Shown in pieces: positions 7,048-30,111 of a DNA stretch of 36,637 nucleotides. Origin of the DNA: a virus (Duplodnaviria > Heunggongvirae > Uroviricota > Caudoviricetes); the IMG/VR virus record IMGVR_UViG_2778261178_000002. One strand, 5' to 3'. The position numbers were made by a program, and so were the translations under genes. Under the pieces are notes generated by a model, which saw only the letters and a program-made list of their open reading frames with translations, was not told the origin of the DNA and made no database searches. The first letter of the stretch is position 1, and every line of letters starts with the position of its first letter.

Positions 7048-8238
7048 TTAATTGCTGTTAACCGAAGTGACCAGATTTGCCAGGTATTTATCGGTAATAC
7101 GCTGGCGCAGGGTCAGGTTTTCGAGAGGAGGCACCGGTGTATAGTCGTAGTCGATATACAGTTTTCCGGCCTTGAGGGTTTCCGCATCGTTGGATTCTTC
7201 GCTGAACCAGCAGGTCGCATCCACGATATAGCCGTTTGTTTTCAGCTCTCGGAATTTGGCATTGATGCCGTCAACGATGTCGCGAATCAGCGTTGCGGTG
7301 ATGGGCTTGTCCACCGCCCACATGTGCGCCTCAGCCATCGTGTCGGCCAGTACCTGCGCGGTGCGGGTGTAGTTTTCAAAGAGGAACAGCGGGTCATCAG
7401 AGCAGGTACGGTTACCCCAGAAGCGGAAACCGTCACGGCGAATCAGTGTTGTGACGCCTGACTCGTTAAGCAGGTCAGCATCGGTGCCGGACTCCTGCAA
7501 ATCCCAGAATACAGATGCGCTGATGCCGGTAACACCGTTCACCCCGACATTGGACAGCGTTTTATGCCAGCCCTGCTCCTGGTCGATTTTAGCGCGCAGA
7601 CCCAGCGCACGGGCGGTGGCATACGCGGTGGTGGTGGTACTGGTGACCGTATCCCATGCGAGGAAATCCGGCCAGATGACCATCAGCTCACGCTGGCTGA
7701 AATTCTGGCGGTAGGCTTTCACCTCGGAAATGGTTTTACAGCCCCATGCGCTGATATACCCGAAAGCGCGCAGCTTCTGACAGACTGATGCCAGTGCAAC
7801 AGCCACCTCTTTGGTATCCTGTCCCGGCACGCCGAGAATACGCGGTTTAACACCGGTTACCGACTCCGCCGCCAGCAGGGCTTTCAGTCCGGTGTACTGA
7901 CCGTTTTCGTCGGTGGTGCCGATGATATTGGAAACGGTCTGCGCAAGTTTCGTTTCTTCGTCGTCGCCGGTGCCGTCTTCCACGCGCACAACAACGGTGA
8001 CCGGTTTTGACTGGTCAGCGATGGCCTGTAACGACGCCGCCAGCGTGCCTTTTTTACCGGCCTTTGCAATTGCGCTCTGCACATTGGTAATCAGCACCGG
8101 TTTATTGAGGGGGAAGGTTTCCGCATCCGCATCGCTGGCCGTGCAGACCATGCCGACAATGGCAGTGGATACGGTGGAAATGACGCGGGTGCCGTCGTTA
8201 ATCTCCAGCACCTGCACGCCGTGATGATAGTCACTCAT
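7048..8238 (-). CDS. FI: Contractile tail sheath protein gpFI
   Basis: 396 aa, position and length as in P2. Confidence 0.85.
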   Translation of the reverse strand: MSDYHHGVQVLEINDGTRVISTVSTAIVGMVCTASDADAETFPLNKPVLITNVQSAIAKAGKKGTLAASLQAIADQSKPVTVVVRVEDGTGDDEETKLAQTVSNIIGTTDENGQYTGLKALLAAESVTGVKPRILGVPGQDTKEVAVALASVCQKLRAFGYISAWGCKTISEVKAYRQNFSQRELMVIWPDFLAWDTVTSTTTTAYATARALGLRAKIDQEQGWHKTLSNVGVNGVTGISASVFWDLQESGTDADLLNESGVTTLIRRDGFRFWGNRTCSDDPLFLFENYTRTAQVLADTMAEAHMWAVDKPITATLIRDIVDGINAKFRELKTNGYIVDATCWFSEESNDAETLKAGKLYIDYDYTPVPPLENLTLRQRITDKYLANLVTSVNSN

Positions 8239-8333
8239 CCGTTTAACTCCGTGGTTAATGGGTGCAACTATTTTCTGTTGTGCAGAGCATGAGACGCTAT
8301 TTGACCTGGCTGGTCAGTGGATGAAACAACAGA

Positions 8334-8360
8334 TAAAGAAAAGGCGGGCAATTCGCCCGC
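8334..8360 (-). terminator. Rho-independent terminator downstream of cargo operon 1, upstream of the FI late promoter region
   Basis: GGCGGGC / GCCCGCC stem with AATTC loop, followed on the minus strand by a T-rich tract (TTTTCTTT). Confidence 0.55.
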
Positions 8361-8722
8361 CTGTCCTGATTTGTACTCACTCATTTTCCGCCTGACAATT
8401 TACATAGCCCAAAAGTTATCAAATCTGACAGTCTGCTTTGAGCGAAAAGCGGAAGTTCACCATTGACTCCAAGGGACGTATTTAAAGATCTTTTCAATAT
8501 TTTTGAATATATATCGAGCGTGTTTTTAATTTGAATAACCTTAATGAAAGTATAACAAAAAAATTAAAAGTAGTAACGTCAGTAAAACATTTCAAATATG
8601 ATTTAAAAGTGTTTATGAGTGCCGAAAATGGAGATCTATCCACAATGGATATGCATTGCATATCCATAATTCTTGAGTACAAACACCATCATGAGGTGGA
8701 CTCTTGCAGGCACAAAATCAAT

Positions 8723-9838
8723 TCAAATAAAATTAAATAACTCATGTTCATCTATAGCTTTTGATCCAATTAAATTCGCAGCTTCTATGTCATTATCATT
8801 TGTTTCCGAAATAAGGAAAAATGAATCAATATTATTTTGTAAAATGATTTTTTTATGCTTCTTAAGCCATTGTAATTTACTTGTAGTGAACAACACTCGG
8901 CGCGGTAGAAGAATACGACTAAAAACTGAGGGGAGATACTCACTTCTATTAAATTGAACAAAAGGATCACCAAAAGAAAGGATAGTTAGATGATTAAATT
9001 TACCGTGCAAATTCAATTTTTCAGCTGATTTAGCTATGCCACTTGGCAAAAAAACACCTGTCTTGATACCTTTACGTAAAGCAGTAACAGCCATCATTTT
9101 ATCGAAAGCAGTTCCACCAAAGAGCAATGAATACCCTTTCTTAACAGAAATATCAATAGTATCAAGGACAGCTTGCTTTTCTATATCGCTAGGTGATGTA
9201 CTCGAAATTATAGAAAGATCAAAGTCAGTAAATAGCTGCCCAGTATAATAAAGATTTTTGCTTGATAAAGTTGAAAGTTTTACCGGAAAGCTTTTATCAT
9301 CACGTCGAATTTCGGACACATTTAGATCCTTTAGCGATGGGTAGCTATGGTTTGGTGTGACTTTTTCTCGTTTATTATTTTTTGATGCTTGCGGGCTAAA
9401 AACCAAAATCTCATTTTTATTGTTAGATAGAGAATCTTGTATCATTTTTTTTACAATTTCCCAATCAAGACCGCCGTGGCCACAACCTAAAGCTGGTAGA
9501 GTGATAATTTTACCGTTCTTATGCTCCAAATAATTCGAGAGCCAAACCAGACCTTTTTCTATATATTCATACTTGGATTTATTTTTCCAATGATCCTTAG
9601 TAGGAAAATTTATGATCTCTATATCATTACCATACGCATCAGCATTTTTCCAAACTGCTGGTTTACCTGGGGATATGTCTCCTTTTTTACATAGCAATAC
9701 GTACTCATCATACATTTCGGGAAACTTGTTTTTAAAAGCAAAAGCTACCCCTGCCCCCATTACACCAACACAATTAACTGTATTGATTCTAATGTCAGCA
9801 GCATAATCAAAAAAATCACCATCAACGAATCTAATCAT
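8723..9838 (-). CDS. Macrodomain (ADP-ribose-binding/hydrolase, DarG-like N-terminus) fused to a C-terminal DprA/SMF-like domain; putative antitoxin/sensor partner
   Basis: N-terminus carries macrodomain motifs (NTVNCVGVMGAGVAFAF; ITLPALGCGHGG); C-terminus has a DprA-like glycine-rich stretch (LLFGGTAFDKMMAVTALRKG...FLPSGIAK); ATGA overlap with the upstream gene; AT-rich. Confidence 0.55.
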   Translation of the reverse strand: MIRFVDGDFFDYAADIRINTVNCVGVMGAGVAFAFKNKFPEMYDEYVLLCKKGDISPGKPAVWKNADAYGNDIEIINFPTKDHWKNKSKYEYIEKGLVWLSNYLEHKNGKIITLPALGCGHGGLDWEIVKKMIQDSLSNNKNEILVFSPQASKNNKREKVTPNHSYPSLKDLNVSEIRRDDKSFPVKLSTLSSKNLYYTGQLFTDFDLSIISSTSPSDIEKQAVLDTIDISVKKGYSLLFGGTAFDKMMAVTALRKGIKTGVFLPSGIAKSAEKLNLHGKFNHLTILSFGDPFVQFNRSEYLPSVFSRILLPRRVLFTTSKLQWLKKHKKIILQNNIDSFFLISETNDNDIEAANLIGSKAIDEHELFNFI

Positions 9839-11169
9839 AAATTCTCCTCAAGATAAGTATACATCCTTGCTCTTAATTCTTCAATTTTATCAATCCCATC
9901 TTTTACCCATGCTGTATTAATGGAATTCATATCGCATTTAGCAATTAGAATTAACATATCTACATCAGATTTTATCTTTATTATTTTTTGCATTTGCTCT
10001 TCGTTTCTTTCATGGGCTATTATATCCCCAACAAGATCATCGTAAACTACGAGTGTCACAATTTGCCTTATTTCCCTATTGGATAAATCACCTATTTCTT
10101 CACACAAAATTCTTTTAAGCATAGGTAACGATTTAATAGGATGAGTATCATCTACTTTTTGTACTCCATCTTTCCATCTAGATTTAGGTCCTTTGCCAAT
10201 ATCATGTAAATATGCAGCGAGCGTTACAACAAGTCGTTCTCTTTCCGATAAGTCGTGGAATGCAGACTCCGTATTAAGTAAGCTGGCAACTCTTCTGCTA
10301 TGTGCCCCAACATCCTCTCGGTGAATAGGATTATCTGTTTCAAGGCCATCAATATCAGAAAGTTCTTTTATACACCCAAAGTTATTGCTAATCGCTTCTA
10401 ACACATCTGCGATATTTTTAAATCTAGGGTTTAAAGGTTTATTTTGTTTTATATCACTTATATATTTTTTAGTCTTCGCAAGGAGAATCTTAGGTCCTGT
10501 AACAATATTCACCCGGCCTACCACATTTAAATCATGAAAGTAATGATGATCAAATGATCTAGAATCACAACGAACATCAAAATTATTAAACCCATATTTT
10601 TTCAATAGCTGTGCAACATGCGTTTTCACGCAAAGATTCCAAACAACAATAAATGAAAAATTATTGAAGGGAATTTCATCATGAATAAGCAACTCTGCCA
10701 TTTTTTGCTGTTTTACTCCTTCGGTCTTTGGGATCCACACTCTACTGTCAATTGCATCCCAATTTAGCTTATTTAAATCATCAGCATTAGAGTAAAATGT
10801 TGGTGGCGTTAAAGTATTTGCAGAAGAATTTGAAAAAACTACTGATTTATCTTCTATCGCCTCTATTGGTATCGCAAGATATATAATTCCTTCTTGATCT
10901 ACGTTTTTTTTCTTAATAACATTAAGTAACATGGGAGATCTTTTAGTGAAGTAAAAAGGCACATAATCATGGACCACTCCACCTGGACCACAAGTGACCC
11001 TCATTTCACTACGACGGTGTTGTATTTCATTATTTGCTATATCTTTATGAATAATGCCTCTATTTGATTTTAAATTTGTACTAAGTAATCCATTTTTTAT
11101 AATTCCCTCAAGATTATCAATGTATGTAAAATGATAAACAAACCTATCTGAGTATTGTGGTTTTATCAT
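9835..11169 (-). CDS. DarT-like ADP-ribosyltransferase domain (DUF4433-type) fused to a C-terminal HD phosphohydrolase domain; putative toxin/effector
   Basis: N-terminus YHFTYIDNL (His13), HRRSE, HDYVPFYF, and a candidate catalytic Glu in MAELLIHD (about residue 159), resembling DarT; C-terminus has HD-domain motifs (H in GAHSRRV, HD in YLHDIGKG, D in VYDDLVGD); strong SD AAGGAG before the ATG. Confidence 0.55.
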   Translation of the reverse strand: MIKPQYSDRFVYHFTYIDNLEGIIKNGLLSTNLKSNRGIIHKDIANNEIQHRRSEMRVTCGPGGVVHDYVPFYFTKRSPMLLNVIKKKNVDQEGIIYLAIPIEAIEDKSVVFSNSSANTLTPPTFYSNADDLNKLNWDAIDSRVWIPKTEGVKQQKMAELLIHDEIPFNNFSFIVVWNLCVKTHVAQLLKKYGFNNFDVRCDSRSFDHHYFHDLNVVGRVNIVTGPKILLAKTKKYISDIKQNKPLNPRFKNIADVLEAISNNFGCIKELSDIDGLETDNPIHREDVGAHSRRVASLLNTESAFHDLSERERLVVTLAAYLHDIGKGPKSRWKDGVQKVDDTHPIKSLPMLKRILCEEIGDLSNREIRQIVTLVVYDDLVGDIIAHERNEEQMQKIIKIKSDVDMLILIAKCDMNSINTAWVKDGIDKIEELRARMYTYLEENL

Positions 11170-11581
11170 TTACTCTCTCCTTAAAATTTAAAGTTTTATC
11201 TGTATAGATTTAGTCTCAACTGAATTAATAGTCTTTATTAATCATAATATTTAAATAATTAGGCTGCTTTTTTAATTGAACTATAAAGAATAAGCAACCC
11301 ACTCAATAAGATACACTTTATTTATTCTGGTGCAATATTAAAAACGCATAATAAGTGTCATTTTCATTGCTCGTGAATGCCATTACTCTTAAATCGTGAT
11401 CCGGTTCAAAATTTAGAGGCTGGAGCTGGTTGTGTTTAATGAAAAATTACAATTTTAATACGTCCGCTGTACACCCTTAGCTGCCGTTAGCTTAACGTCC
11501 GCAACAGGCACAGAGCGGACTGTCAGATTAGGCTTTACTCTGTACCATAGATATGTAAGCTCACACCAGAGTTCATACAAC

Positions 11582-12109
11582 TTATTGCGGCATTTCCGGC
11601 CATTCAGGATTTGCAGGATCCACACGACTGACCAGAACGCTGTAGCGTTCCCAAGCCTCCAGCCGTGTGCGCTCCTCCTCTGTTGCCATGTTCAGTCTGA
11701 CCGCGCGCTCCAGCGGCAAAATCACGGATTCAGCATCTGCAAGAAGTCTGGCTTTCCGGTTTTCTGCCTGCTGCTGCAATTCCTCTGCCGTATAAATGCG
11801 TTTAATCACTTTTCCGTCCTTAAACATCCAGCCCCCTGAAATGTCCGCCCGTCGGTTAGCAGTAATATCCGCCACTTCAACAACACTTAATCCATCCGGT
11901 CTGATAGCTGTCACATCCTTTTCCACATAGCGGATGATATTATCCTTGTCGTACGCTATTTTTATCGTGTCATCAGCAAAATACTTTTGTTCTTCGTACC
12001 AGTTCTTACCATCTTCTGAAAAAAACCAGACAACATCAAAATCCCTTGTCAATTGATATTGTTCAACCGTTTTTGGATTACCTGCCGTTATATTTATCAA
12101 ATGCTGCAT
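11582..12109 (-). CDS. G: Tail fibre assembly chaperone gpG
   Basis: 175 aa, immediately downstream of H. Confidence 0.8.
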
Positions 12110-26421: not shown

Positions 26422-28392
26422 TTAAAGGTCATCAATTAAACCTAAAGGCAAACCGTCCTCACCAACCGAGCTATAATGAGCGATAATATTCGAAAGTTCA
26501 CCAGTAGAAAACGAATTAGGCAAATCATTATCAACTAATATAATCTGGCACGGAACATTTTTTCTTTCTGCTTTTTGAACTGTATTCAATAGTTGTTCAT
26601 AAATATTTTGATACTTCATCGGATCTGACATTCCCTCAAGGTCATCCTCGACTGCAAGAGTTTCTTTTGAATATTTTTCCTTGGTCTGTTTCCCTAAATA
26701 TTTGCCAACCGTATCAAATATCAAAAGTAAAGGATGGTTAACATTATGATCTATTGCATAATCAAGAATAGACAAAAGATACCCAATAGAAGAAATAGTT
26801 CTCAAACCTCCGGATGTTATTTTAAAATATTCTTTTTCTCTTATAACAGGAATGTAATAGCTTTCAGAGATTTTTATCCCCGTTCTGTTTTTGATATTAA
26901 TACCCTTCAAATACTGACTAAATCTATCACCCAAACCTTGTAAAATGCCCTCCATGCTAGGTGCGTTTTTCTTTAACGCCTCCAAGCGTTCAGTTAATGC
27001 TTCAATATCTTTTCTCAGTACCTGATACTTTTCAAGCAGTTCCTCTTGCTGGTTTCTAACCTTCAAATCTTTTACTAACTGCTCCCTAACCTTCTCATTT
27101 TTTGATATCTCTTTAATATAAAAATCTCTCTGAGTCAAGAATGGTGTAATCATTGACTGGCTTTCTTCGTCAATCAATTCTCTCAACTCGTCAAGTCGTT
27201 CATCTAATTCTTTTTTATAACCTGATTCTTTTTTTAATTTAAATGACATTTCTGAGATCATGTCATTAATATTTCGTCTACGTCGACTAAGTGAATTCAA
27301 CTCTTCATTAAGATCTTTTTCTGATGAAATTTCAAATGGAAAATCAGAATCATCTATTTTAATGTGGCTATCACAGATTGGACAGGAAAATATTTCCTTA
27401 TCCAATACACCAATGCGAGAATTTGCTGTTTTAATCGCTTTAAGTTTTTCAATATCATTATCATAGTCATTTTTTAACCGCGAATATTTATCAATCTTAT
27501 CCTCAAGCGCACTAATATTTAATATGCACTCTTTGTATTTAAGCGAAATAAAATTGTGAGCATCTTTAAATTCTGTATACTGTATGGAATCCGCTTTCAT
27601 ATTTTTATCGAGAGCAGACAAACCTGCAACAAGTTCTTCTAAAACAAGATCTATCCTATTAATCTCATCATCAATTGATTCAATTGTTTCATAGTCTGTA
27701 TCGCGAAGAAATTCAGATATTATCTGATACTTCCTATTTAATTCCGTTACTAAACTACTTTTTGCAGATATTTCACCTTGGAGTCTGGCGATGCTTTCAT
27801 CCAACACATTGAACATGTATTTAAAAACTTCTTTCGTAAATGCGTAGCGGGACCAATCACCCAATCGCAAGAAAGATTTACTACCAATATCATCCTGACT
27901 TACATAAACAAATTTATATATATTTCTAAAACTTAACCTGCGCATCTGTGAATGCGCTTTAGAAGGAGACACCTTAATTTCAATCTTTGGAAAATTAAGA
28001 CTATCAAGTAAAAACTCCGAAAAAACACCATCAACATTTGATAATGGGCTATAATTAGGAGCGTATTTTTTCGGAAAATGTTTATGTAAATCATCAAACT
28101 TACAACGATAAACTTCTATTGCTTTTTTATGATCATAGATATCTCTTACGATTGTGAATACAGTATCATTGATCACTACTTCAAGAGCAGCATAGTTTAC
28201 TGATGTTTTTATTTCATCTGCTAAATCTATAGAGCTAGCACCTAAAAGATAATTAATAAACTCCAGAATGCTTGACTTACCTGTGTCAGAGTCTCCGTAG
28301 ATAACATTGAGACCTTTATAAAAAGTAGTGACGTAGTTTTTACGAACACCAACAAGAATCAAACTATTGATATTGAGATATGATTTCATCAT
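26422..28392 (-). CDS. SMC/Rad50-like ABC ATPase with long coiled coil (Lamassu LmuB-like / ABC-3C ATPase)
   Basis: N-terminal Walker A GDSDTGKSS; central coiled-coil-like region with a CxxC (FSCPICDSH) hook-like motif; C-terminal ABC signature TSGGLRT and Walker B LLLIFDT; SD AAGGAGAA; ATGA overlap with the upstream gene; AT-rich. Confidence 0.6.
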   Translation of the reverse strand: MMKSYLNINSLILVGVRKNYVTTFYKGLNVIYGDSDTGKSSILEFINYLLGASSIDLADEIKTSVNYAALEVVINDTVFTIVRDIYDHKKAIEVYRCKFDDLHKHFPKKYAPNYSPLSNVDGVFSEFLLDSLNFPKIEIKVSPSKAHSQMRRLSFRNIYKFVYVSQDDIGSKSFLRLGDWSRYAFTKEVFKYMFNVLDESIARLQGEISAKSSLVTELNRKYQIISEFLRDTDYETIESIDDEINRIDLVLEELVAGLSALDKNMKADSIQYTEFKDAHNFISLKYKECILNISALEDKIDKYSRLKNDYDNDIEKLKAIKTANSRIGVLDKEIFSCPICDSHIKIDDSDFPFEISSEKDLNEELNSLSRRRRNINDMISEMSFKLKKESGYKKELDERLDELRELIDEESQSMITPFLTQRDFYIKEISKNEKVREQLVKDLKVRNQQEELLEKYQVLRKDIEALTERLEALKKNAPSMEGILQGLGDRFSQYLKGINIKNRTGIKISESYYIPVIREKEYFKITSGGLRTISSIGYLLSILDYAIDHNVNHPLLLIFDTVGKYLGKQTKEKYSKETLAVEDDLEGMSDPMKYQNIYEQLLNTVQKAERKNVPCQIILVDNDLPNSFSTGELSNIIAHYSSVGEDGLPLGLIDDL

Positions 28393-28901
28393 TTCTCCTT
28401 GAAAACTTGATTTATAACAGAGTTTAACTTAGAGGTAGGCAATGCTTGTAGCGGTAACAATGCTTCGGATAGTCGTTTTATTTCTTTAAAATATCCATCA
28501 GTCAATGAGCTAGCAAATTCCTTACCTTTTTCAGATAAAAATAATTTAACACTCTCATTATTTTTTTTCTCAGCTGAGAGCAATCCCCGCAATGACATAA
28601 TTTTTATAAGATATTTCACTTTGGAATTGTCGAATAAGATATCTACATTTGATGAAAAACTCTTTATTGTATAAGTTAACTGGGACTCGACACAAGCAGG
28701 CTTTTTCCCCGAAATTGTAAGAGCATAATCAATTTTTGATGGGTTTTTTATCAGATACATAAAAATTTGTATTTTATTAATATCTAATGATAACACTCCT
28801 TTTTTGCTATGAGATAATATAGATATAGCAATGGCAAGCATAGCAAAATTCAAGCTATACTCTTCATCAAGAGGAATATACGGCAAGTTATTTTTCTTCA
28901 T
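28389..28901 (-). CDS. Small middle-component protein (LmuC-like), function unknown
   Basis: 170-aa ORF translationally coupled on both sides (14-nt overlap upstream, ATGA overlap downstream); SD GAGGT; no recognisable catalytic motif. Confidence 0.4.
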   Translation of the reverse strand: MKKNNLPYIPLDEEYSLNFAMLAIAISILSHSKKGVLSLDINKIQIFMYLIKNPSKIDYALTISGKKPACVESQLTYTIKSFSSNVDILFDNSKVKYLIKIMSLRGLLSAEKKNNESVKLFLSEKGKEFASSLTDGYFKEIKRLSEALLPLQALPTSKLNSVINQVFKEK

Positions 28902-30111
28902 GATTACCTCGCCGTAATTGCTCCAAAGTTTCTACGCTGGTTTCAGATGACCAGACAATATCTCTATCATTTTTGTTAGCCAGTTGATGCAACATTCCTT
29001 TCTTATGTATCGTTTCTAAACTTTTTATAAGAGAATCTAACGACGACTTATCCTCTTGGGCTATTCGTCTATGAACAGCAGCAATAAATTTATCTGGGGA
29101 AATTGAATTCGCGATATATTGCTCATACTCTTCCTGGTAAATCTCCCTTATTTTAGAATACAAATGACCAAGTAGTTTCCTATCGTAATCACTCGTAAAA
29201 ATATTTCTCGCAAGCTCAGCATTATAATAATATTCCTTTGCATGCATAGCGATATCCTGATGTATATCTGCGACAATCATTTTTAAGACGAAATACTCAT
29301 TATCATATTGTTTCTCATCAGAAAAACGCTCAACACATATCTTCTTGGGTGCTTCTAAATTTATCTGCTGAATAAATTGCTTTACCGCAACAAACACTGT
29401 AGACGAGCTGTTTTCGGGCTTGCAAATTGAGCTATGCCCTTCATTAACTGCAATTGAGTTATTTCGTTCACTATCCATCGGTAATGCGCTTTTTTTATCA
29501 ACTATAGTGTCATGAGAACCATAAACATATCTAGTGATAGGAAGTTTTTTGCTACAATTTATCCAGCGCCTATTCAATGTATCAGTCGCTTCACTTAACA
29601 ATCCAAGATCTACTAACTGAGCATTTGAAGATACCATTGAAGTTATATTCGCCAATTTAGCACCAAAGTGAGGGACTGCTAACGAAATGAATCCAATTAT
29701 ATTAGATTGTTCCTCATGCTCAACTTTTTTTAGAATTAGATTTTTTGATATTAACCCCCCCATACTATGGGCAATTATTATAATTCGAGAGTAATCACTT
29801 AGCGTTACCCTAATCTCAGTATACAATAACTCAGCTATTTCATCAGTTGGTAAATTTCTCTCTAACTTATTTTTCTTAGAGAAAATACGAGCCAATAATC
29901 CTGACGTTTTAGCATACGTTTGTGTAAATTTTGTGAAATAGTTGAAACATGCAATATCAAATACATTGCCAATGTCTTCATCTTCTGCTAATAGTTTTGG
30001 AAATGAAGTTTCTTTATTAAAGTTCCATGTTTCCAAACCACCATTTAATCCATGTACAAATAGTATCAGGCTATCTTTTTTCTCGTGGCTTATCCATTCA
30101 ACCATGCTCAT
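28888..30111 (-). CDS. Alpha/beta-hydrolase (lipase/esterase-like Ser-Asp-His) effector with C-terminal helical domain (LmuA-like)
   Basis: N-terminal LILFVHGLNGG, nucleophile elbow AHSMGG, candidate Asp (GSHDTIVD) and His (NEGHSS); C-terminal about 170 aa with no catalytic motif; first gene of a three-gene operon. Confidence 0.55.
   Translation of the reverse strand: MSMVEWISHEKKDSLILFVHGLNGGLETWNFNKETSFPKLLAEDEDIGNVFDIACFNYFTKFTQTYAKTSGLLARIFSKKNKLERNLPTDEIAELLYTEIRVTLSDYSRIIIIAHSMGGLISKNLILKKVEHEEQSNIIGFISLAVPHFGAKLANITSMVSSNAQLVDLGLLSEATDTLNRRWINCSKKLPITRYVYGSHDTIVDKKSALPMDSERNNSIAVNEGHSSICKPENSSSTVFVAVKQFIQQINLEAPKKICVERFSDEKQYDNEYFVLKMIVADIHQDIAMHAKEYYYNAELARNIFTSDYDRKLLGHLYSKIREIYQEEYEQYIANSISPDKFIAAVHRRIAQEDKSSLDSLIKSLETIHKKGMLHQLANKNDRDIVWSSETSVETLEQLRRGNHEEK

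Follow-up and report, generated by a model that had tools for sequence, protein, structure and literature searches.

The question raised by this locus is how a DarG-like antitoxin neutralises its toxin once the usual toxin-binding tail has been exchanged for a domain of another fold. The locus lies in the window, by which we mean the whole 36,637-nucleotide stretch of DNA analysed here (IMG/VR record IMGVR_UViG_2778261178_000002), and it amounts to a complete E. coli prophage of the P2-like kind. Three RefSeq chromosomes contain positions 8300-11500 with 100% identity, and the genes on either side are named there tail sheath, tube, tape measure, tail fibre and tail-fibre assembly. Between them sits an island of about 3.3 kb holding two minus-strand genes (Table 1), in a slot that we take to be the Z/fun cargo position of P2. 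The toxin gene comes first, and its last 4 nt (9835-9838) are also the first of the antitoxin gene. This toxin-first order and the 4-nt overlap match DarTG operons and were counted in favour of a DarTG-type cassette; the order of darT followed by a darG-like gene is identical in all related loci. The best explanation of positions 8723-11169 on the minus strand is a two-gene DarTG-type toxin-antitoxin or anti-phage cassette, carried as cargo in a tail-gene slot of the prophage.

Table 1. Features of the cassette and its surroundings, in coordinates of the window
Feature	Position	Strand	Basis and remarks
Sheath gene FI	7048-8238		borders the cargo island; NZ_CP138423 annotation
Low-GC cargo island	8239..11581	.	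34-40% GC against ~56% for the prophage; composition; NZ_CP138423 annotation (identical stretch)
Terminator-like hairpin	8342..8362	(-)	3' of the cassette, ahead of the sheath gene; 9-pair stem, 7 GC pairs, T-run; consensus match alone
Antitoxin gene, 371-aa DarG-like protein (macrodomain, linker, DprA-fold domain) and stop codon	8723..9838	(-)	ORF
DprA/Smf-fold Rossmann domain, residues 166-371 (206 residues)	8726..9343	(-)	structure model and profiles
F296-N-R-S-E300 ... R308, helix alpha6; DprA motif 2 equivalent, degenerate	8909..8953	(-)	hhalign against Smf F208-P-R-R-N
Loops following Rossmann-core strands 2 and 3, including LLFGGTAFDKMMAVTALRKG and FLPSGIAK	9029..9127	(-)	profile alignment
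Loop S212-S-T-S-P-S217; DprA motif 1 equivalent, Arg absent	9188..9205	(-)	HMM alignment to 3uqz, 8zva
Flexible linker, predicted disordered, residues 151-165	9344..9388	(-)	pLDDT <50 at 152-165 (full-length model)
DarG-type macrodomain, residues 1-150	9389..9838	(-)	Lys81 in FPTK (9596-9598); G-C-G-H-G-G-L loop 9461-9487
Toxin gene, 444-aa DarT-HD fusion	9835..11169	(-)	ORF; Pfam, NCBIfam and PADLOC matches
Linker end and HD phosphohydrolase domain, residues ~245-444	9838..10437	(-)	Pfam HD; partner alignment
DarT ADP-ribosyltransferase domain, residues 12-203; H13; K-M-A-E159-L-L motif	10561..11136	(-)	Pfam
Tail-fibre-assembly gene	11582-12109		borders the other side of the cargo island; NZ_CP138423 annotation

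The toxin is a fusion of two recognizable domains. Its N-terminal part matches Pfam DarT (PF14487) with an E value of 5.8e-47 and 160.4 bits against a cut-off of 22.5, over model positions 1-197 of 201; it also passes the NCBIfam toxin_DarT model (NF048013; 158.2 bits, cut-off 150) and matches PADLOC DarT at E 7.8e-53. All nine full-length toxin partners have the (K/R)-M-A-E-(L/V)-L motif. The C-terminal part matches Pfam HD (PF01966; E 1.6e-6, 28.8 bits, cut-off 22), a threshold passed by all nine partners, and it contains the complete set of H...HD...H...D metal ligands of the HD superfamily, with H283, H290, H322-D323, H343, D378 and D413 invariant in the alignment of the nine. Because these ligands are invariant among homologous partners, the HD domain is probably active. 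PDB and Pfam profile searches for the substrate class of the HD domain returned generic HD matches only, at E 0.007 or weaker.

The antitoxin begins with a TARG1/DarG-type macrodomain in which the catalytic lysine is kept. Lys81 aligns to K80 of Thermus DarG, a residue whose mutation abolishes de-ADP-ribosylation (PMC8385414). PADLOC DarG is matched with an E value of 6.4e-58 but over model positions 1-159 of 329 only, and NCBIfam DarG (NF048014) scores 228.6 bits, below its cut-off of 250, over positions 1-208 of 338 only. Annotation hides the architecture of the protein, which appears in RefSeq merely as a 'macro domain-containing protein' and in PADLOC as a match of half length. The full-length model (pTM 0.57) indicates that the macrodomain and the tail beyond the linker would have no fixed mutual arrangement.

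The tail is a diverged Rossmann domain of the DprA/Smf type, within the DprA clade of the SLOG superfamily. A model of the tail built from a 22-sequence alignment reached a pLDDT of 93.7 and a pTM of 0.90, and when it was compared with the PDB by Foldseek every match with an E value below 1e-4 was of the DprA type: the antitoxin ShosA (8zva; E 1.2e-8, TM 0.76), followed by the DprA proteins of S. pneumoniae, H. pylori and R. palustris. Further SLOG-type proteins (TT1887, MoCo carriers, LOG) followed at TM ~0.47. When a sequence profile was searched against the PDB, DprA and ShosA were the sole non-macrodomain matches under E 0.01. An hhalign comparison of the tail with an Smf profile gave E 2.2e-5; this profile, built since single-sequence hhalign against E. 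coli Smf aligned only partly, is a shallow one whose members all share 68% or more identity with the query. In Pfam the signal lies below threshold: the antitoxin scores 14.3-16 bits against PF02481 (E 0.007-0.024; model positions 3-119 of 212), short of the gathering score of 29.6 bits, and DNA_processg_A is matched by 7 of 16 family members, every one under the gathering score. A phmmer search of the PDB with the most DprA-like family member (P0034) returned macrodomain matches only, and a fold search of BFVD with the tail gave no convincing match (best TM 0.39).

A sequence-only reading of this stretch had already proposed a DprA/SMF Rossmann-like fold for the C-terminal half of a macrodomain protein whose partner is an ART-HD protein, and all of its domain calls were reproduced with Pfam, PADLOC, NCBIfam and the structure match. 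The two stretches to which it had pointed, LLFGGTAFDKMMAVTALRKG (9068-9127) and FLPSGIAK (9029-9052), align to the DprA 'G-l-A-x-G-I-D' and 'G-x-G-L-D' loops, and the check proposed alongside it, structure prediction followed by a Foldseek comparison, ranked DprA-type proteins best. The fold was identified correctly. Its start, put at 9271, lies some 70 nt farther upstream, near residue 166 (9343).

Canonical DarG proteins end differently. Their tails of about 200 residues, as found on Sagittula and Zymomonas plasmids, match the C-terminal domain of Mtb DarG (7yk3_B) at E 2e-7, whereas the tail studied here does not match it. By itself the canonical tail is able to neutralise DarT, which it sequesters (PMC7003065), and according to the summary of a preprint it mimics ssDNA in the DNA-binding site. 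A DprA-fold domain has therefore replaced an unrelated helical DarT-binding domain, in the place that the non-enzymatic brake has in canonical DarG. Both of the canonical short DarTs that were examined are paired with the canonical tail. The possibility that the canonical tail is itself a hidden relative of DprA was ruled out (hhalign probability 0.2%), the match to 7yk3_B occurring in the canonical tail only.

The tail family comprises 8 clusters in an index of 5.8 billion proteins and, when searched with the family profile, 28 cluster representatives among 1.84 billion proteins; among these 28 matches no bona fide DprA was found, none reaching E 1e-3. Full-length members have about 370-383 residues with the tail match at about 168-375, and the others are shorter, fragmentary or truncated. 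An alignment of five tail sequences retrieved the domain in 2 of 185,579 species genomes. The exact cassette is present in 3 of 5,426 complete E. coli genomes, and an 83% variant is situated beside the e14 integrase and icd in 7 among the E. coli records listed. One locus with a DprA-tailed DarG sits between SIR2 and McrBC genes.

The DprA-tailed DarG is accompanied by an HD-bearing DarT in all 12 independent loci. A DarT-HD of about 445 residues lies immediately upstream in the window, on an E. coli island, in Citrobacter and Oceanospirillum, on an Agrobacterium plasmid and a Klebsiella IncF plasmid, and on five metagenome or MAG contigs (L001, L003, L006-L010, L014, L015 and L016, besides the window). 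A search from the HD side yielded 44 clusters, again a small family, and of three look-ups made from it two, an Amphritea locus with a split toxin and a metagenome contig (L017 and L019), carry an antitoxin of macrodomain and DprA fold (E 1e-64 and 1e-61). The lone exception (L018) is an orphan that is N-terminally decayed. Within the sample reached, the DprA tail and the HD extension co-travel in both directions. In Citrobacter (L014) and on the E. coli island (L001) the antitoxin is 85-87% identical to that of the window, and the DarT-HD protein beside it only 41-45%. At these same two loci a decayed 3' remnant of an HD gene is found between the toxin and antitoxin genes.

The residues of the tail bear on what it could bind. 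The ssDNA pocket of H. pylori DprA is built from the motifs G-S/T/A-R (R52) and F/L/Y-x-x-R-N/D (F140-N144) (PMC3950713), and the equivalent arginines of ShosA, R139 and R234, are required for ssDNA binding and for antitoxin function (PMC12961424). In the antitoxin the first motif reads S212-S213-T214. Arginine occupies column 214 in 0 of 16 members; one column later a lysine or arginine is found in 8 of the 16, serine here. The second motif reads F296-N-R298-S299-E300, in a tentative register taken from a 76%-probability hhalign alignment to the shallow Smf profile. With this register the aromatic residue is kept (F or W in 15/16 members), the arginine position holds serine (S299) here and lysine in 8/16, the Asn/Asp position is mostly Glu, and a basic residue stands one position ahead of the arginine position in 13/16. 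Judged by these alignments, the key ssDNA-binding arginines of DprA are lost in the antitoxin, R52/R139 being replaced by T214 and R143/R234 by S299. Some members of the family may still be DNA-binding, since Lys/Arg after motif 1 and Lys at the motif 2 arginine each occur in half of the family. Both the N-terminal SAM domain of DprA and ShosA and the 'SGSL..TA' element of DprA are absent from the antitoxin.

Other positions are conserved in a manner particular to the family. E220 (9179-9181), which follows the motif 1 loop, is invariant in all 16 members, and G241 (15/16), P265 (15/16), S288, P292 and R308 are near-invariant and family-specific; G267 is present in 14/16. According to the predicted secondary structure, E220 and the five near-invariant residues fall in or beside the post-strand loops and on helix alpha6. 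Post-strand loops are the usual ligand face in Rossmann-like folds. The nucleotide motif of LOG proteins, PGGxGTxxE as quoted in PMC3950713, is absent from both the antitoxin sequence and the family consensus. As a whole the tail evolves faster than the other three cassette domains, with 23-46% identity to the window protein as compared with 52-67% for the macrodomain, 41-55% for DarT and 39-56% for HD. Such a rate is easier to reconcile with a protein-contact or arms-race surface than with a conserved ligand pocket.

We tentatively favour, at somewhat less than even confidence, a reading in which the tail is a second, non-catalytic arm that holds the HD-bearing toxin by protein contact and so takes the role of the canonical sequestering tail. 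By homology, DarT would ADP-ribosylate thymidine in ssDNA and the macrodomain would strip the ADP-ribose off again as the enzymatic arm. The DprA-fold tail would dock on DarT-HD, probably through the HD extension, and would keep the toxin inactive and near the macrodomain, in the way that plain DarT is restrained by the canonical C-terminal domain. An infecting phage could then disturb the hold of the tail and free both toxin activities. This proposal draws on the position of the tail and on its co-occurrence with HD, the latter being the ground for the putative HD contact, and the loss of the DprA ssDNA arginines was counted in its favour. Several observations count against it. The strongest comes from Citrobacter and the E. 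coli island, where an antitoxin much like that of the window accompanies a far more divergent toxin. A tight interface specific to the cognate pair is hard to square with this, unless it is the nearly invariant HD core that is contacted, and DNA-level or purely enzymatic neutralisation would fit better. Moreover, ShosA, the closest structural relative, neutralises its toxin without contacting it, via ssDNA and RecA, the basic residues near the DprA motifs in half of the family leave DNA binding possible for some members, and the invariant residues of the tail cluster in post-strand ligand loops.

The main rival, a reading at the level of DNA, is possible but doubtful. Here the tail, like ShosA, would bind ssDNA and/or RecA, and would either bring the macrodomain to DarT-marked ssDNA or promote RecA-dependent repair of the damage done by DarT and HD; phage ssDNA or recombination proteins could act as the trigger by titrating the tail away. 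The best structural matches, ShosA and DprA, are ssDNA-binding proteins, and ShosA is moreover an antitoxin, one that depends on binding to ssDNA and RecA and leaves the toxin untouched. The substrate of DarT is ssDNA, and the lesions that DarT makes are dealt with through RecF/RecA recombination (PMC7003065). An antitoxin of ~86% identity alongside a toxin of ~42% is what DNA-level neutralisation would lead one to expect, and most tails are mildly basic, with a pI >8 in 11 of 16, although net charge and pI are not discriminating. Against this stand the positions of the ssDNA arginines (R52 and R143 in HpDprA, R139 and R234 in ShosA), which are T214 and S299 here and the first of which is never Arg in the family, as well as the missing SAM domain and 'SGSL..TA' element. 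The constant pairing of the tail with the HD extension is left unexplained by a DNA-level role.

It is also conceivable, if unlikely, that the tail serves a two-headed ART and HD toxin as its infection sensor. The tail would in that case, like ShosA, read phage ssDNA, RecA or recombination intermediates, or else a ligand derived from ADP-ribose and bound in a DprA pocket put to new use, and its engagement would free DarT-HD. A sensor pocket of the SLOG type, in which a nucleotide or an NAD/ADP-ribose-derived ligand toggles the antitoxin off or on, seems quite improbable. The invariant residues of the post-strand loops and helix alpha6 leave room for a pocket of altered specificity, but the ligand-binding SLOG proteins are distant, a signal-generating enzyme is not linked to the cassette, and conservation across the domain is low. 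This was the function offered by the sequence-only reading; its fold and its pairing of domains stand, while the ligand sensing said to govern release of the ART found no positive support. That the tail has replaced a known toxin-sequestering domain is a more economical starting point than a sensor. Finally, the notion that the tail is a passive dimerisation or stability scaffold left from a DprA-like ancestor, with the macrodomain doing all of the neutralisation, agrees with the dimerisation of DprA and ShosA through their Rossmann domains, the sufficiency of the EPEC DarG macrodomain alone for cell rescue (PMC7003065), and the fast evolution and degenerate ligand motifs of the tail, yet it is very unlikely in view of a tail that stays full-length with a confident fold signal down to 23% identity, an invariant Glu with several near-invariant residues, and a strict coupling with the HD extension.

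The cassette resembles several known systems in part. Canonical DarTG (DarTG2; Thermus, M. tuberculosis, EPEC) lacks the additional ~240 residues of linker and HD domain that the toxin has here, and its antitoxin tail is of the 7yk3_B type in place of a DprA Rossmann domain; the present antitoxin remains under the NCBIfam equivalog cut-off for DarG. ShosA of ShosTA (8zva, 9vzo) is a DprA-like antitoxin, but one with only 16% identity, with an N-terminal SAM domain where the macrodomain is found here and a PRTase partner where ART-HD is found, so that the cassette does not have the ShosTA architecture; nor are the essential ssDNA-binding arginines of ShosA conserved. DprA/Smf proper (PF02481; 4ljk, 3uqz, 3maj) shares with the tail the Rossmann topology, including an upstream 'YP..L', and the G-x-x-x-(I/F)-D and (G/P)-x-G-(L/I) loops. 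Its SAM and winged-helix flanks are absent here, both ssDNA motifs are degenerate, and the tail forms a separate, rare family. Other DprA-like antitoxins besides ShosA are SyrA and RqlI, as cited in PMC9122126.

Two further comparisons concern modular change around macrodomains and DarTG. The macro-SLOG fusions of phages (Iyer et al. 2022, PMC9503650) likewise join a macrodomain to a Rossmannoid of the SLOG superfamily in a conflict context; these are mainly of the YpsA clade, with a predicted counter-defence role in processing or sensing soluble ADPr derivatives, whereas here a DprA-clade SLOG member is located inside a DarG antitoxin beside DarT. The DarHTG / DarG3 variant (PMC13069673) is likewise a DarTG diversified by swapped or added modules on the antitoxin side, in that case a UvrD-like helicase and an ARH-type glycohydrolase, without HD and without a DprA fold. 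In the open-access literature we found no description of a DarG with a DprA-fold tail paired with an HD-fused DarT. The cassette would work like DarTG; it carries bona fide DarT and DarG-macro modules and falls outside both the full-length DarG and the Pfam DprA definitions. It is apparently an undescribed DarTG variant, in which an antitoxin with a DprA-fold tail is combined with an HD-fused toxin.

The cassette offers a handle on the trigger by which phages switch on DarTG. Its coupled pair of domains lets one ask whether neutralisation and triggering of DarTG take place at the level of protein, DNA or ligand, and it bears as well on what a second effector, the HD domain, adds to DNA ADP-ribosylation. 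Since the fold is the same as that of ShosA, the question is also raised whether the DprA fold has been recruited repeatedly as an antitoxin module. If the tail did prove to be an infection sensor, DarTG would gain a defined sensing module and a mechanistic link to ShosTA.

The DprA-tailed antitoxin family shares an M-G-A-G motif in the first macrodomain loop, as does TARG1. Canonical DarG proteins (Thermus, Mtb, Sagittula and Zymomonas), in contrast, carry M-G-K-G at this position. This substitution is a clade-specific change in the ADP-ribose-binding loop.

The antitoxins of Citrobacter sp. Cu233 and E. coli MDR_56 are 85–87% identical to that of the window, and the neighboring DarT-HD proteins are just 41–45% identical to the window's. 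In these loci, the toxin and antitoxin genes are separated by a decayed piece of the 3′ end of a further HD sequence, and they look like cases of toxin replacement with retention of the antitoxin. In E. coli MDR_56, the toxin gene is also interrupted by IS50R and the macrodomain ORF is annotated as longer (413 aa).

The most divergent member is the 491-aa antitoxin of Agrobacterium tumefaciens pAt1D1609b, which bears a C-terminal extension of ~100–120 extra residues and matches the tail profile weakly (E 2.6e-15); a DarT-HD of 439 aa is still found upstream. On the Amphritea japonica chromosome, the toxin is called as two overlapping genes (DarT, 160 aa; HD, 291 aa), so that the reading frame is either shifted or naturally divided here. 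These are followed by a 381-aa macrodomain and DprA-fold antitoxin, and the genes adjoin a type I restriction R subunit. The L018 locus harbors a DarT-HD homolog with L-S-E in place of the M-A-E motif, and its ~50 N-terminal residues are absent or decayed. No macrodomain gene was found near it at this locus, and this orphan is probably a remnant.

Coordinates of features in the window and in related loci (L numbers; positions are locus-internal)
Feature	Position	Strand	PADLOC E
First macrodomain loop M-G-A-G, antitoxin residues 27–30	window 9749-9760		
LmuA, alpha/beta-hydrolase (DUF676/lipase-like) head + CTD8	window 28888-30111	-	6e-109
LmuC/MC4	window 28389-28901	-	4e-52
LmuB, SMC-like ATPase	window 26422-28392	-	6e-235
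E. coli MDR_56 cassette, adjoining e14 int/icd	L001:5006-9688		
ADPRTs_Tse2-domain gene, directly after the cassette of a metagenomic relative	L003:6388-6807		
A. tumefaciens pAt1D1609b antitoxin	L010:3501-4976		
Citrobacter sp. Cu233 cassette	L014:1460-4624		
Klebsiella pneumoniae plasmid NZ_CP124697 cassette	L016:2411-4857		
Amphritea japonica chromosome cassette	L017:3034-5523		
Orphan DarT-HD homolog	L018:3321-4589		

In the metagenomic relative (L003), BrnT-toxin fragments precede the cassette, and its surroundings form a small cluster of toxin and ADP-ribosylation genes. The window prophage has a second cargo slot of low GC (32–34%) at 26422-30111 on the minus strand. A three-gene Lamassu / ABC-3C system is encoded there, as identified by PADLOC; together with the DarT-HD cassette, this single prophage therefore carries two defense cassettes.

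The DarT-HD/antitoxin cassette of the window is also found on the IncFIA/IncFII/IncR plasmid NZ_CP124697 of Klebsiella pneumoniae, ~1.6 kb from repE, with an antitoxin 98.7% identical in amino acid sequence to that of the window. This cassette moves between plasmids and prophage hotspots, and on plasmids it could serve as an addiction module.
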